NCBI GenBank assembly: GCA_947457465.1
Contig: CANGWB010000005.1
Span: 11,829 to 75,828 of the forward strand
DNA from: Chitinophagaceae bacterium
GTDB taxonomy: Bacteria; Bacteroidota; Bacteroidia; Chitinophagales; Chitinophagaceae
Length of the DNA: 64,000 nucleotides
Direction: 5' to 3'
In this document: positions 15,876 through 20,578 of the stretch, one piece after another
How positions within the stretch are numbered: position 1 is the stretch's first letter
Layout of the letters: each line of letters starts with the position of its first letter
Program-made: the position numbers and the translations under genes
Notes under the pieces: generated by a model
Told to the model about the DNA's origin: nothing
Seen by the model: only the letters and a program-made list of their open reading frames with translations
The model's database searches: none

Positions 15876-17726
15876 TCAGTAGATGCCTTTGTAACGCAAT
15901 CGTACCACTCGGCCGTCCATTGTTGATGCCAATAATTCTTTGTCGTTGATCACCCGAACCGTATTCACCATCGAGTTGTCGATCTTATAGGACCATTTCA
16001 CGAATTGTTTTTTCGGATCCACGGCATACACAACACCATTACGGGTTCCAAAAAATACCATACCGTCTCGCTCTACCAACATAGAAGGAACATGGTCGTA
16101 GCCATAGCCAACATTCATTTTCCATAATACCTCCGGCCGATCGGCACGTGCTGCGTAGGCAACCAGGCTGTCCTGCATACTTTTTCCATAGATCATGGTT
16201 GCATCGTTTGAGAGACCGATCGATTCACGTAGGCCGCCATTTTTAGTGCGCCAAAGCGTACTGCCATCTCGAAGGCTGATCGCAGACAAGTATCTGTCCG
16301 GGGCCACCACAAACACCACGGAATCTTTTATCAGCGGCGTACAGGAAGCCGGAGAAAAGTTCCGAACAGATGACCCATTGCTCCACTTCCATTTCAGTTG
16401 GCCGGTTCGGGTATCGACTGCATAGAGGTGGCGATCCCAGGCCCCCAGGATCAGCTTTCCCTCAGCGATCACAGGGGTGCTGACAACCGGACCTTCCAGT
16501 CCTTTATAGGTCCATATCCGATCGCCGTTTTTCAAGTTCAGCGCATAGATCTCGCCGGCACTACCACCAATGAAAATAGTATCCCCTTTTATGAGCGGAC
16601 AGCCCAAAACAGCTGCCGGTGTTTTTTTCTTCCAAAACAATTTTCCGGATCGCCCATCCAAACAATGTATCTCACCATCCGCAGATCCAAACACAATACG
16701 CTTGCCACTTGCGGCAGCGGAGGAAAAGATAGCACCTGCGGCGGAATAGGTCCATTGGCGAGCACCTGTTTTCGAATCATACGCAATAAATTCACCCACA
16801 TGATTACCGATCATCACAGACCGCTTTGTATACAGCGGGCTGGAAAGAACATTGGCTGAAGAAGAAACTGTCCAAGCAGCTGAAACCTCAGGATACTTAG
16901 CATTAATCGAATAATCCGGTCTGCGAACCGACTGTTCGGGTACTCGAACGCCCGCTTTGACAGCTGCCCAACGCCTGGTGGTTGCTTCCAGTGGTTTTCG
17001 TTCCTGAAAGAAGATGCTGTCGCGGCGTACTTCTACCCAATTGTATCCTCCGCCGGGTGCTTTTGCTCGAAGATTGGATCTACCCATTACACCTGGTATT
17101 CCTTCAAAATCAAATTGCTTATTGGCATGACCATGCCCGCAAATGGCGACCATGGTATTGCGAGTCCGGAGACGATCCGTAGCCTCATACCAATTATCGA
17201 GGCTACTATCAATGGGATAATGATTCACAAATACGATAGGCGCTTGTGGATCGATAGCAGAAAGTTCTTTGTCCAGCCAGTTCACCGCATCTCGTGGAAT
17301 ATGACCATCACTCATGCGAACATAGGGCCCGGATGCACATCCGATAAAATGTATCCCCTTGTGTTCAAAGTGAAATTTATCGGATCCGAATATTCGGATG
17401 AATGATTGTCCGCCTGATTCACTCCAACCGGTATCGTGATTGCCCGGTATCGGGTACCAGGGGATCTTTAATTGATCAAGTATCGACTTAGCTAAACGGA
17501 TCTCCTCATCTTTGCCCATTTCAGTGATGTCACCAGTGACCAGCACAAAGTCTAAATCGGTTTGTAGATTTATATCGTTGACCGTTCGTCGAAGATCCTC
17601 CTCCGGAGAGCCGTTGGGAGAACCTATGTGTGTATCAGTGACAAAAGCAAAACGAAATGAGGCTGGCTGAGCTATTGATAATAAAGAATTGGTCAACAGG
17701 CTGAGCAGAAGAAGTATACGTTGCAT
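15876..17726 (-). CDS. Secreted calcineurin-like metallophosphoesterase fused to a PQQ/BamB-like beta-propeller
   Basis: Signal peptide; DTH, GDITE, GNHD, HYP, GHGH phosphoesterase motifs; repeated 'G...W......' propeller blades in the C-terminal half. Confidence 0.85.
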   Translation of the reverse strand: MQRILLLLSLLTNSLLSIAQPASFRFAFVTDTHIGSPNGSPEEDLRRTVNDINLQTDLDFVLVTGDITEMGKDEEIRLAKSILDQLKIPWYPIPGNHDTGWSESGGQSFIRIFGSDKFHFEHKGIHFIGCASGPYVRMSDGHIPRDAVNWLDKELSAIDPQAPIVFVNHYPIDSSLDNWYEATDRLRTRNTMVAICGHGHANKQFDFEGIPGVMGRSNLRAKAPGGGYNWVEVRRDSIFFQERKPLEATTRRWAAVKAGVRVPEQSVRRPDYSINAKYPEVSAAWTVSSSANVLSSPLYTKRSVMIGNHVGEFIAYDSKTGARQWTYSAAGAIFSSAAASGKRIVFGSADGEIHCLDGRSGKLFWKKKTPAAVLGCPLIKGDTIFIGGSAGEIYALNLKNGDRIWTYKGLEGPVVSTPVIAEGKLILGAWDRHLYAVDTRTGQLKWKWSNGSSVRNFSPASCTPLIKDSVVFVVAPDRYLSAISLRDGSTLWRTKNGGLRESIGLSNDATMIYGKSMQDSLVAYAARADRPEVLWKMNVGYGYDHVPSMLVERDGMVFFGTRNGVVYAVDPKKQFVKWSYKIDNSMVNTVRVINDKELLASTMDGRVVRLRYKGIY

Positions 17727-17763
17727 ATACACAATTTACAGCATTGCTGAGTACCTTGCGGGG

Positions 17764-18141
17764 GTGGATTCGAAACAACGACATACCCTGATCCTCGGCG
17801 CCTCCCCAAACCCGGAGCGATATAGTTTTATCGCATTGCAAATGCTTAAGCAAGCCGGCATATCTATATCCGCTATTGGAGCCCGTCCTGCGATAGTGGA
17901 GGATATTCAGATACACACAGGCTGGGATCAACTTTCTGATGACCGGATCGATACGATCACCTTATATATAGGAGCTGATCGACAAAAAGATCAGTACCAT
18001 AATATATTATCTGCTAAACCCCGGCGCATCATATTTAATCCGGGTACTGAAAACGCCGAACTCGAACAACTTGCACAGTCAGCCGGCATTGAGACCTTAC
18101 AGTCCTGTACGCTGGTAATGCTAAGGACAAACCTTTATTGA
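17764..18141 (+). CDS. CoA-binding protein (YccU-like)
   Basis: LILGASPNPERYS...IDTITLY...PRRIIFNPGTEN...CTLVML; GTG 17764 lies 4 nt after TACCTTGC. Confidence 0.88.
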   Translation: MDSKQRHTLILGASPNPERYSFIALQMLKQAGISISAIGARPAIVEDIQIHTGWDQLSDDRIDTITLYIGADRQKDQYHNILSAKPRRIIFNPGTENAELEQLAQSAGIETLQSCTLVMLRTNLY

Positions 18142-18146
18142 TACGG

Positions 18147-18180
18147 AATTCTACGATTCGCAGTAGAAATCCTACGATTC
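18147..18180 (+). repeat. 13-bp imperfect direct repeat at 21-bp period (possible regulator site)
   Basis: AATTCTACGATTC 18147-18159 and AATCCTACGATTC 18168-18180. Confidence 0.6.
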
Positions 18181-18189
18181 CAAAACATG

Positions 18190-18220
18190 AAAATGCCCTC
18201 ACTGAGGGTATTTTCTCTTT
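18190..18220 (+). terminator. Intrinsic terminator after the CoA-binding protein gene
   Basis: AAAATGCCCTC-ACT-GAGGGTATTTT followed by CTCTTT. Confidence 0.7.
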
Positions 18221-18344
18221 GTATTCTTTGGCATAGGGCCTTCGACCGAGTCATCTTTGGCTTGTCCTTTTCGAGAAACCAAAAGCAGTACGGAAACGAA
18301 CTGCGACCATCCATCCAATATCGATTAACTCTAAAAAGTTAATT

Positions 18345-18815
18345 ATGAAAACCAATCAGATCCTCGTCCTCGGCCTCTTATTACTGGCCACCGCGTTCAA
18401 TGCAAACGCACAGGATCCCACCATTCCCCTCAACGAGCCCAACTACAACAAGCCTCGGATTTTCAACACGATGCCTGACCGCATTGAGATTACGCCGGAG
18501 AAGTTGAACCAGTTGATCGCCACCCCGAATGGCCAGGCAACCAATATTCCTTTCAATGCCCAGGCAGGTGAGATCGATGGAGATGTGATCAGCGCCGTGA
18601 GCAAATACAACAATACCATCCAGAGTGTAGTGATCCGCTGTGCTGATTTCGATGGAGCTCGTCTGACGCTCAGTAAGGTTAATATGCCCGATGGCACAAC
18701 CAAGTATACCGGTCGTATCATCAGCATTCGCCACGGTGACCTGTACCAACTCATCCTGGAAGATACCGGATGGGTGCTTGTCAAGAAAAATTTCTACGAC
18801 CTCATTAACGAATAA
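18345..18815 (+). CDS. Secreted hypothetical protein resembling a stand-alone metalloprotease pro-domain
   Basis: 156 aa with Sec signal (…NANA|Q); beta-rich C-terminal half YTGRIISIRHGDLYQL...WVLVKK; no catalytic motif and no CTD. Confidence 0.7.
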   Translation: MKTNQILVLGLLLLATAFNANAQDPTIPLNEPNYNKPRIFNTMPDRIEITPEKLNQLIATPNGQATNIPFNAQAGEIDGDVISAVSKYNNTIQSVVIRCADFDGARLTLSKVNMPDGTTKYTGRIISIRHGDLYQLILEDTGWVLVKKNFYDLINE

Positions 18816-18907
18816 CCCCCTACGCGAAAACTAACTAGAGCCTGTTTCTAGTCCTACCCTTTGTTTTTGATCCGTGCACTTCTTTTACCATCCAGAAAAA
18901 CCCGATC

Positions 18908-20497
18908 ATGAAAAAGACGCTCTTCACCCTGACGCTGTTCCTGCTGGGATATGCCTTGAAAGCCCAGGTTCCAGTATTGAATAGCTATCCCTCTGCCAGT
19001 GCGGTGATTTTTCTTGACTTTGACGGTCATGCCGTAGATGGTACCGGCTGGAATTATAACGGACCCATCTTTTGTGCGCCATCTGGAATGGACAACACAA
19101 AGATCACAAGCGCGTTTAACCGGGTAGCGGAAGATTATCGTCCCTTTAACGTGAACATCACAACAGACTCCACCAAATTCCTGGCAGCACCCATCAACCG
19201 CCGTATGCGTGTAGTCATTACAGTTACCTCCAGCTGGTACGGTAATGCGGGCGGGGTCGCCTTCGTCGGCTCTTACACGTGGGGAGATGACACACCTTGT
19301 TTTGTCTTCTCTGCCCTGCTGAATTACAATGAAAAATATGTGGGGGAAGCAGCTTCTCATGAAGCCGGACATACATTAGGACTTTACCACCAGTCTTCTT
19401 ATGATGGAAACTGCGTTAAGACATCCGACTATAATGGCGGTTTGGGAACCGGCGAGATCGCCTGGGCCCCCATCATGGGTGTTGGCTATTACAAGAATAT
19501 GTCCCTCTGGCATAATGGTGCAAACCCATATGGCTGTAACAGTATCCAAAACGACCTGACTGTTATCACCACCAATAACGGATTCACCTTCCGTACTGAT
19601 GACTACGCTAGCAGCATCACTCAAGCGAACAGCTTGTCCTTCACCAACAACCAGTTTGTTATTAGCGGTGTAGTAGAGACTACTACTGACGTCGACTTTA
19701 TTCGGTTCAACATGCCCGTCAATGCTCGTTTTCTACTCGATGCCATTCCATACAATGTGGGCACAGGTAATTCCGGATCTAATGTAGACCTGCAAGTATC
19801 CCTCTACGATAGTCGTAGAAACCTGGTGCGGACTTACAATCCCGGTACGCTACTCAACTCCGTAATCGATACAACCCTGACCAATGGTACGTGGTTTCTG
19901 ATGGTTGAAGGAAAAGGCAATGCATTTGCTCCGGATTATGCCAGCTTGGGTTCCTATTCCCTCAGTGCCAGATTTTCTGTGGGCGGCGTATTACCGCTCC
20001 GTCAACTGGTATTGAAAGGACAGGTCAGTGGTGACCGTCACCAATTCACCTGGCTGATCGATGCAGATGAAGCGGTAACCGAGCAAATTCTTGAAGTCTC
20101 TGTAGACGGCCGCAACTTCACACCTGTTTCCGGCACTCCGGTAGACAGTCGGGCCTACCAATACAAACCCTTCGCCCAAGGCATGTTGCAATACCGAATG
20201 AAGGTGAGCTTTGACAATGGCGAGACCCACTATTCTAATCTGATCGCCCTGAAGAATGAGGCCGGTAACGACCAGCCCAAACTCATCAGTACCATTCTGA
20301 CAGGCAATAACATAACTGTGAGCAGCCCGGGTACATTCGACTATGCTCTGTATGACTTGAACGGAAAGATCTTGCTTCGTGGCCAACTCAGCACCGGAAT
20401 GAACAGTCTCCCTGCCGGCAACCTGAACAGCGGCATGTACATGATCCGCTTCAGCAAAGGAGCCGCTCAATGGACTGAAAAACTTATTCACCAATAA
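18908..20497 (+). CDS. Metzincin zinc metalloprotease (reprolysin-like) with type A T9SS C-terminal domain
   Basis: Signal peptide, IFLDFDGH, HEAGHTLGLYH (HExxHxxGxxH), Met-turn PIMG, PPC-like middle domain, terminal LYDLNGKI...GMYMIRF...KLIHQ. Confidence 0.9.
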   Translation: MKKTLFTLTLFLLGYALKAQVPVLNSYPSASAVIFLDFDGHAVDGTGWNYNGPIFCAPSGMDNTKITSAFNRVAEDYRPFNVNITTDSTKFLAAPINRRMRVVITVTSSWYGNAGGVAFVGSYTWGDDTPCFVFSALLNYNEKYVGEAASHEAGHTLGLYHQSSYDGNCVKTSDYNGGLGTGEIAWAPIMGVGYYKNMSLWHNGANPYGCNSIQNDLTVITTNNGFTFRTDDYASSITQANSLSFTNNQFVISGVVETTTDVDFIRFNMPVNARFLLDAIPYNVGTGNSGSNVDLQVSLYDSRRNLVRTYNPGTLLNSVIDTTLTNGTWFLMVEGKGNAFAPDYASLGSYSLSARFSVGGVLPLRQLVLKGQVSGDRHQFTWLIDADEAVTEQILEVSVDGRNFTPVSGTPVDSRAYQYKPFAQGMLQYRMKVSFDNGETHYSNLIALKNEAGNDQPKLISTILTGNNITVSSPGTFDYALYDLNGKILLRGQLSTGMNSLPAGNLNSGMYMIRFSKGAAQWTEKLIHQ

Positions 20498-20543: not shown

Positions 20544-20578
20544 AAGAGGTTTCCTTAACTTAGGGAAACCTCTTTTTT
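20544..20578 (+). terminator. Intrinsic terminator after the metzincin gene, abutting the next start codon
   Basis: AAGAGGTTTCCT-TAACTT-AGGGAAACCTCTT then TTTT; the next ATG is at 20579. Confidence 0.75.

Follow-up and report, generated by a model that had tools for sequence, protein, structure and literature searches.

A free-standing pro-domain-like protein encoded beside a T9SS metzincin without a pro-region in Chitinophagaceae: a probable pro-domain in trans

A 64-kb stretch of DNA from a freshwater Chitinophagaceae bacterium (the window, whose positions serve as coordinates throughout) carries a gene for a small secreted protein directly upstream of a gene for a reprolysin-like metzincin with a sorting domain for secretion by the type IX system (T9SS). 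The initial annotation of this DNA, made from the sequence alone, had proposed that the two genes encode a free-standing pro-domain and a metzincin devoid of one, and our analysis sustains that proposal through the linkage of the two genes, the predicted fold that the small protein shares with the pro-regions of single-chain relatives, and the mutual exclusivity of the two arrangements. The small gene probably encodes an adamalysin-type pro-domain as a polypeptide of its own, co-transcribed with the metzincin and acting on it in trans. We favor this reading because the genes form a linked unit, the separate gene and the attached pro-region replace each other across homologues, the predicted fold is shared, the sequence profiles are similar, the small protein ends at the switch position and the genome holds T9SS genes. 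In the literature searched, we came across no description of a T9SS metzincin whose pro-domain is naturally encoded by a gene of its own.

The two proteins and their transcription unit

Both open reading frames (ORFs) are intact and lie 92 bp apart, exactly at the coordinates that the initial annotation had given. The upstream one had been described there as a separate secreted protein of 156 amino acids (aa) with its own signal peptide and neither a catalytic motif nor a C-terminal sorting domain (CTD), and this description agrees with what we found. Sequence inspection identified a cleavable type I signal peptide (MKTNQILVLGLLLLATAFNANA/QDP, the slash marking the ANA/Q cleavage site) and no evident N-terminal transmembrane anchor. 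Catalytic motif and CTD were both absent from the sequence and from the Pfam and NCBIfam scans; Pfam returned no significant match (one sub-threshold, E 0.067), NCBIfam returned nothing, and a profile of the small protein matched no PDB sequence at E ≤ 10. The family to which it belongs comprises 545 clusters at 50% identity and is confined to Chitinophagaceae in a sample of 401 genomes of the phylum. The best 150 of these clusters are all short, with complete members of about 145-220 aa and with nearly all matches reaching their own C-terminus, and none of these 150 representatives is fused to a protease.

The downstream protein is, as judged from its HExxHxxGxxH zinc motif and its Met-turn, a metzincin. 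Its family profile matches serralysins and snake-venom/ADAM proteinases; Reprolysin_3, at 21.6 bits, falls short of its cut-off of 22.4, Reprolysin_4 and Reprolysin_5 also stay under their cut-offs, and precomputed PF13582, PF13583 or PF13688 matches exist on several orthologues and on Flavobacterium relatives that carry a covalently attached (cis) pro-region. Besides the catalytic and sorting domains, one region of the protease has PPC-like features. The sorting domain passes the cut-offs of both TIGR04183 (37.9 bits, cut-off 23) and PF18962 (29.1 bits, cut-off 27), and the genome encodes T9SS machinery (SprA_N, 513 bits; GldM, 108 bits), which together identify the protease, at the level of sequence, as a T9SS type A cargo.

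The catalytic region had been said to begin right after the signal peptide, with the pro-region missing, and indeed FLDFDG lies within 16 residues of the cleavage site that ends the signal peptide MKKTLFTLTLFLLGYALKA/QVP (18908-18964). The 120 closest protease homologues among the matches listed are all ≤557 aa long, mostly about 530 aa, so that they have no room for a pro-region. Since the small family is short as a rule among its best 150 clusters and the listed protease homologues leave this room to none, the arrangement is not a frameshift, as had also been argued at the outset.

The small gene and the protease gene are co-transcribed. A scan of the window placed terminator-like hairpins on either side of the pair and none between the two genes. 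In freshwater metatranscriptomes, an RNA contig of run X2 (18775-18925) spans the spacer with 0 differences, and a contig of run X4 from a related strain (18567-19336, 773 nt) spans it as well; no RNA contig from these metatranscriptomes covers 17900-18283, the first one beginning at 18306.

Linkage of the two genes across genomes

Co-occurrence of the two genes had been named as a check on the proposal, and it holds widely. A scan of GTDB with one genome per species gave 162 stretches with a relative of the small protein, and 80 of these loci were retrieved. A metzincin gene comes next on the same strand in all 79 evaluable loci, the contig of the eightieth ending too early, and in each of the 79 the ORFs of small protein and protease are separate, with a median gap of 82 bp (range -8 to 117 bp). 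Across 301 Chitinophagaceae genomes, 100 of the 105 small-gene matches lie directly upstream of a match to the catalytic domain, and two genomes that seemed to hold the protease only do contain divergent small genes (loci L097 and L123). Two loci also show the genes duplicated together, L081 in tandem and L105 as a paralogous pair that is dispersed.

The tandem duplication (L081:3619-8155, in genome G059 of the same genus) has the order small, protease, small, protease and is flanked by the usual CoA-binding and RNaseH-like genes. In a divergent pair, where small gene and protease overlap by 4 bp (L085:5414-6780; genome G159, contig C1, about 3491.4-3492.8 kb), a small protein of 141 aa ending in ...FLVTE precedes a shortened protease of 314 aa whose zinc motif reads HQIGHTLGLQH, with Gln in place of the catalytic Glu. 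This protein may be a pseudo-protease that has lost activity but retains both CTD and partner.

Upstream gene and attached pro-region exclude each other

Homologues of the catalytic domain fall into three classes. Class A (79 loci; L083-L085, L097, L105 and L123-L126) has FLDFDG about 35 residues from the start and no pro-region, and the upstream small gene is always present. Class B (L100-L103 and P0350-P0391 from Flavobacterium, L099 from one other family within the same taxonomic class, and the Chitinophagaceae paralogs L117-L121) has a signal peptide, a region of about 110 aa ending in ...VDINSLIC, a linker of about 40 aa and then LLNLQSLPGAAGCVxLDFDG, and the upstream small gene is never present. 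Class C (L106-L116) is made up of lipoproteins, about 310-416 aa long, which have a short CxFG..FN..KR.P segment at the N-terminus, and lacks the small gene except at L080. Across the catalytic-domain homologues, the upstream small gene and the cis pro-region are thus mutually exclusive. The pro-region pattern that the initial annotation had given for such proteases (G.I....Y.L.....LVK..I..V-Cys) proved to be real and is present in the single-chain relatives, where class B shows ...EGHIILK..KEAYKYYSD..GNAFV.KVDINSLIC ahead of the catalytic domain, with an invariant Cys.

In an unrooted tree of the catalytic domain, the cis class clusters in a single clade (98/88), the L105 pair is sister to it (95/96), and the lipoproteins form another clade. 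To call the genes "split" implies a direction, and one fission or one fusion would fit this unrooted tree equally well.

The lipoproteins have features of their own. The paralogs L106-L116 and L080:505-1662 share a lipobox Cys, no T9SS CTD and a conserved C[DT]FG..FN..KR.P, and this N-terminal segment may be a short Cys-switch pro-peptide. L080, in which a small gene precedes a lipoprotein metzincin, nests among the class C lipoproteins in the tree. It might be taken as proof that the two genes move together, a reading dropped because of this nesting and because the 11 other lipoprotein paralogs (L106-L116) are without a small gene.

Predicted fold and sequence profile

The AlphaFold2 (AF2) model of the small protein, with a predicted local distance difference test score (pLDDT) of 83, and that of a Flavobacterium pro-region (pLDDT 88; predicted template modelling score, pTM, 0.80) consist of ten elements each in the identical order E-H-E-E-E-E-E-E-E-H (E, strand; H, helix). 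In the small protein these are E46-49, H51-59, E65-70, E75-87, E92-99, E105-113, E119-127, E132-139, E142-149 and H150-154, with lengths of 4, 9, 6, 13, 8, 9, 9, 8, 8 and 5 residues. In the cis pro-region they are E2-6, H7-23, E30-35, E38-50, E53-60, E66-73, E76-83, E88-94, E99-105 and a short helix at 107-109, with lengths of 5, 17, 6, 13, 8, 8, 8, 7, 7 and 3, the strand lengths being near-identical between the two models.

Structural similarity to metzincin pro-domains, another check named beforehand, was sought with Foldseek among 350,542 PDB chains. The two models have the same top target, CpaB (6O38, chains G-N), which the small protein matches with E 0.03, probability 1.0 and a template modelling (TM) score of 0.44 when query-normalised or 0.55 when target-normalised, while for the cis pro-region the values are E 0.003-0.009, probability 1.0 and a TM of about 0.5. 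After CpaB, the cis pro-region matches the prodomain of ADAM17 (8snm_A, 9o58_A; probability 0.99); its match to profragilysin/BFT is weak (probability 0.3-0.6).

The sequence profiles point the same way. A local hhalign comparison of 211 separate (trans) sequences with 31 cis pro-regions, divergent members included, scored 22.7 (P = 0.0025) across 86 columns and paired the strands of the two profiles one-to-one. Shuffled controls all stayed lower, with a maximum of 22.3 in 200 column shuffles and of 22.5 in 200 block shuffles, while reversing the alignment brought the score to 12.5. This P value was reached only with the enlarged, more diverse profiles, and we take the similarity to lend modest support, not to prove homology. 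By its element order, the top PDB match it shares with the cis pro-region and the hhalign result, the predicted fold of the small protein is that of an adamalysin-type pro-domain.

The C-terminus and the switch position

It had been noted at the outset that the small protein stops where the cysteine-switch Cys would be, and across the family the chain does end exactly at the position of this putative switch residue. From the conserved Gly of YTGRIIS to the C-terminus there are 33 residues in 180 of 193 trans members, and from the equivalent Gly of EGHIILK to the invariant Cys there are 33 residues in 27 of 30 cis pro-regions; because both spacings are 33, terminal Glu and Cys are positionally equivalent. 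No cysteine-switch Cys follows the last strand of the small protein. The last residue is Glu in 198 of 211 family members and Asp in 6 of 211, giving a carboxylate at this place in 204 of 211, and the C-terminus reads [DE][LV][VI]NE in 78 of the 79 loci. A Cys 3-4 residues from the C-terminus occurs only in the divergent L125 (...IIQPCKQ) and L097 (...PVCSH), and a C-terminal His in two members, L097 again and L123 (...VIAH), so that the tails of all three hold metal-ligand residues near the end.

The other end of the mature small protein has a 23-residue extension without counterpart in the cis pro-regions. The strongly conserved motif IPLNEPNYNKPRLFxxLP opens the mature protein there, with four invariant residues in a segment for which no structure is predicted, and might serve to clamp the protease additionally.

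Proposed mechanism

Metzincin latency is usually ascribed to covalent pro-segments that need cleavage, and the pro-domains of ADAMs assist folding. If the small protein is a pro-domain in trans, both proteins, each having a signal peptide, would enter the periplasm via Sec, where the small protein would bind the catalytic domain of the protease, aid its folding and hold it latent, with its C-terminal tail placed in the active-site cleft. There the terminal Glu, through its side chain and/or its alpha-carboxylate, would replace the zinc-blocking Cys thiol and so act as a "carboxylate switch" in trans. With a sorting domain on the protease only, activity would arise when, at or after T9SS export, the partner is released or broken down.

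A more far-reaching version we advance only tentatively and would not expect to hold in full. In it, the carboxylate switch would be coupled to secretion: the chain-terminal Glu of the separate pro-domain would, in the periplasm, ligate the catalytic zinc, the T9SS translocon, recognising only the CTD of the protease, would strip the partner off, export would itself be activation with no proteolytic maturation, and CpaB would likewise be an adamalysin pro-domain that has become detached. On this view, a pro-domain in trans would recur as a solution in different secretion systems.

Were the small protein a trans pro-domain as proposed, a separate pro-domain would keep a protease latent and allow its activation without proteolysis, with a partner family of 545 clusters. 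The pair would offer a clean genetic system in which to separate the chaperone role of an ADAM-type pro-domain from its inhibitor role, the T9SS field would gain a candidate for a cargo-specific periplasmic partner, and the otherwise isolated case of CpaA and CpaB would receive an evolutionary reading. The replacement of the switch Cys by a terminal Glu, position for position, is a directly testable prediction.

Comparison with known systems

In aspartate-switch zymogens such as profragilysin-3 of Bacteroides fragilis, astacin and karilysin, an internal Asp of the covalent pro-segment blocks the zinc. The proposed switch resembles these in that a carboxylate instead of a thiol from a pro-segment would sit on the catalytic zinc, and differs from them in that the ligand would be the last residue of a separate chain and not an internal Asp of an attached one.

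The small protein resembles cis cysteine-switch pro-domains (P0350-P0391 of Flavobacterium and its relatives; ADAM17, PDB 8snm and 9o58) in its predicted fold of about 110 aa and its element order, in being placed immediately ahead of the catalytic domain, in the conserved G[RH]II strand and in a candidate ligand 33 residues after the Gly of that strand. Unlike them it is not covalently linked to the protease, has a chain-terminal Glu or Asp in place of the Cys and bears the additional conserved N-terminal extension (PLNEPNYNKPRLF). One report describes inhibition of TACE in trans by its recombinant prodomain (PMC2802003).

CpaA/CpaB is the nearest of the known systems, and the pair would, on the modelled structure, combine a similar logic and fold with another secretion system and another phylum. 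CpaB is the dedicated chaperone, needed for stability and secretion, of CpaA, an adamalysin-like metzincin of Acinetobacter secreted through the type II system (T2SS) (PDB 6O38; PMC7542363, PMC6299215), and its C-terminal tail sits in the active site of CpaA, "similar to zymogens" (PMC7542363). Both systems consist of a metzincin and a small partner encoded separately by an adjacent gene; among PDB structures, the small protein and the cis pro-region of its relatives both match CpaB best, and the tail of CpaB in the active site finds its parallel in the C-terminal Glu. The differences are that no PDB chain shows detectable similarity in sequence to the small protein; that CpaB has an N-terminal membrane anchor where the small protein has a cleavable signal peptide; that published cloning constructs name cpaA before cpaB (pcpaAB, pWH-cpaA-his-cpaB), whereas here the partner lies upstream, in the position of a pro-domain; that CpaA belongs to a T2SS in a proteobacterium and the present protease to a T9SS in Bacteroidota; and that in CpaA the N-terminal part holds repeat domains and the C-terminal part the catalytic site (catalytic mutant E520A, PMC7542363).

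Potempins of Tannerella forsythia are specific inhibitors encoded by small ORFs directly upstream of, and co-transcribed with, the T9SS-secreted KLIKK-peptidases; they are lipoproteins of the outer membrane that have either an OB fold or an up-and-down barrel of eight strands and insert loops into the cleft (PMC9890683). The likeness lies in an upstream small gene co-transcribed with a T9SS-secreted peptidase in Bacteroidota. The small protein differs in having no lipobox, a predicted fold like that of prodomains and CpaB, and a C-terminal tail as the proposed blocker, and KLIKK peptidases retain their pro-peptides, while the protease described here has none.

Points against a trans pro-domain and alternative explanations

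Several observations weigh against a trans pro-domain. The whole block of CoA-binding, small, protease and RNaseH-like genes is syntenic, and because the two flanking genes are as conserved in position as the pair itself, linkage alone is weak evidence. Two genomes (G441 and G448) keep an intact small gene while the protease is gone from between the same neighbours, and in two others (G255 and G465) the protease frame holds stop codons while the small-gene matches have no internal stop. The class C lipoproteins have neither the upstream gene, save L080, nor a long pro-region, and the catalytic domain can therefore exist without either form of the partner. Neither model has a Foldseek match at E ≤ 0.001 and TM stays at about 0.5, so each match by itself is borderline, and the weight of the structural argument lies in the agreement between two independent models. 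In the sequence comparison, the first hhalign runs (24 against 41 and then 26 sequences) were not significant (P = 0.15-0.16), the addition of DSSP-derived secondary structure changed little (P = 0.094), the HHsearch probability in the comparison of 211 with 31 sequences is only 12%, and a hidden Markov model (HMM) of the cis pro-region does not recover the small ORF among the 12,253 ORFs of the genome.

The loci concerned can be described further. The orphan small genes (L127:856-1335 in G441, ending in ...AMVE, and L128:2677-3216 in G448, ending in ...AIKD) have the CoA-binding gene and the RNaseH-like gene as their immediate neighbours, the protease gene being deleted. The interrupted frames are G255:C4:140631-141356, from the same genus, with one TAG in the catalytic frame, and G465:C1:758825-759550, with three TGA and one TAG; the protease may be decaying in both lineages.

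Among the alternatives, the one that fares best, though we regard it as unlikely, makes the small protein a mere inhibitor for self-protection, similar to potempins or serralysin inhibitors, that would capture protease active too early, be it in the periplasm or at the cell surface, with no role in folding and a merely convergent likeness to pro-domains. Bacteroidota already possess such upstream, co-transcribed inhibitors of T9SS peptidases in the potempins (PMC9890683), the sequence similarity to the cis pro-region is marginal, and orphan small genes outlast the loss of the protease. However, the small protein has no lipobox, no potempin structure occurs among the 50 best PDB matches of either model, its elements follow the identical order as those of the cis pro-region, and its terminal Glu falls on the Cys of the cis forms. 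Moreover, peptidases guarded by potempins retain their pro-peptide, as prokarilysin does (PMC9890683), whereas here it is missing exactly where the small gene is present.

We give still less credence to a second alternative, in which the small protein is a stable subunit that leaves together with the protease through the T9SS pore and, bound outside, tunes its specificity or is removed extracellularly. The T9SS exports folded cargo; to our knowledge, piggy-back export through it has not been described. The small protein is soluble by sequence, with its cleavable signal peptide and no anchor, and since CpaB deprived of its membrane anchor is co-secreted with CpaA (PMC7542363), a soluble partner might likewise leave with the protease. 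We found nothing directly against this explanation, which amounts to a variant of the trans pro-domain differing in the site of release.

A third possibility, mere synteny between two genes of unrelated function, is already disfavoured and highly improbable: the flanking CoA-binding and RNaseH-like genes are indeed equally position-conserved and the small protein has no family annotation, but the pair has been duplicated jointly (L081, L105), is co-transcribed and isolated from its neighbours by terminator-like sites, has an upstream gene that excludes the cis pro-region, and includes a fold common to a protease prodomain and a protease chaperone.

Features of the unit and neighbouring genes

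Table 1. Coordinates of the two-gene unit and its parts within the 64-kb window
Feature	Position	Strand	Basis or remarks
Terminator-like hairpin, 3' of the upstream CoA-binding gene; 5' limit of the two-gene unit	18189..18215	+	12-pair stem, T-rich tail
Small gene, 156-aa free-standing pro-domain-like protein	18345..18815	+	ORF call; conserved family; AF2 pLDDT 83
Signal peptide of the small protein, residues 1-22 (...ANA/QDP), no lipobox Cys	18345..18410	+	Sequence inspection
Conserved N-terminal extension QDPTIPLNEPNYNKPRIFNTMPD	18411..18479	+	E31, P32, F40 and P44 invariant; predicted coil, pLDDT 56-74
Predicted pro-domain fold core: strand, helix, seven strands; holds the conserved YTGRIIS strand	18480..18791	+	AF2 model, Foldseek, hhalign
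C-terminal tail FYDLINE ending in Glu156; proposed zinc-blocking switch	18792..18812	+	Alignment position of the cis-form Cys
Intergenic spacer, 92 bp	18816..18907	+	Without terminator-like site; crossed by RNA contigs
Protease gene, 529-aa T9SS-secreted reprolysin-like metzincin without pro-region	18908..20497	+	ORF, profile searches
Catalytic domain, starting QVPVLNSYPSASAVIFLDFDG directly after the signal peptide	18965..19690	+	Same segment as the post-linker LLNLQSLPGAAGCVxLDFDG of the cis forms
Zinc-binding motif HEAGHTLGLYH	19358..19390	+	H151, G154, H155 and H161 invariant (24 homologues)
Met-turn PIMG	19469..19480	+	P188, M190 and G191 invariant (24 homologues)
T9SS type A C-terminal sorting domain	20309..20488	+	TIGR04183, PF18962; family profile matches solved T9SS CTDs
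Strong terminator-like hairpin; 3' limit of the unit	20544..20574	+	14 pairs, then TTTT

Upstream of the unit, the CoA_binding_2 gene (17689-18141, + strand) and a metallophosphoesterase/PQQ-propeller gene (15876-17732, - strand) are divergent, and their 5' ends overlap in the longest-ORF calls; the true starts of both genes probably lie further in.

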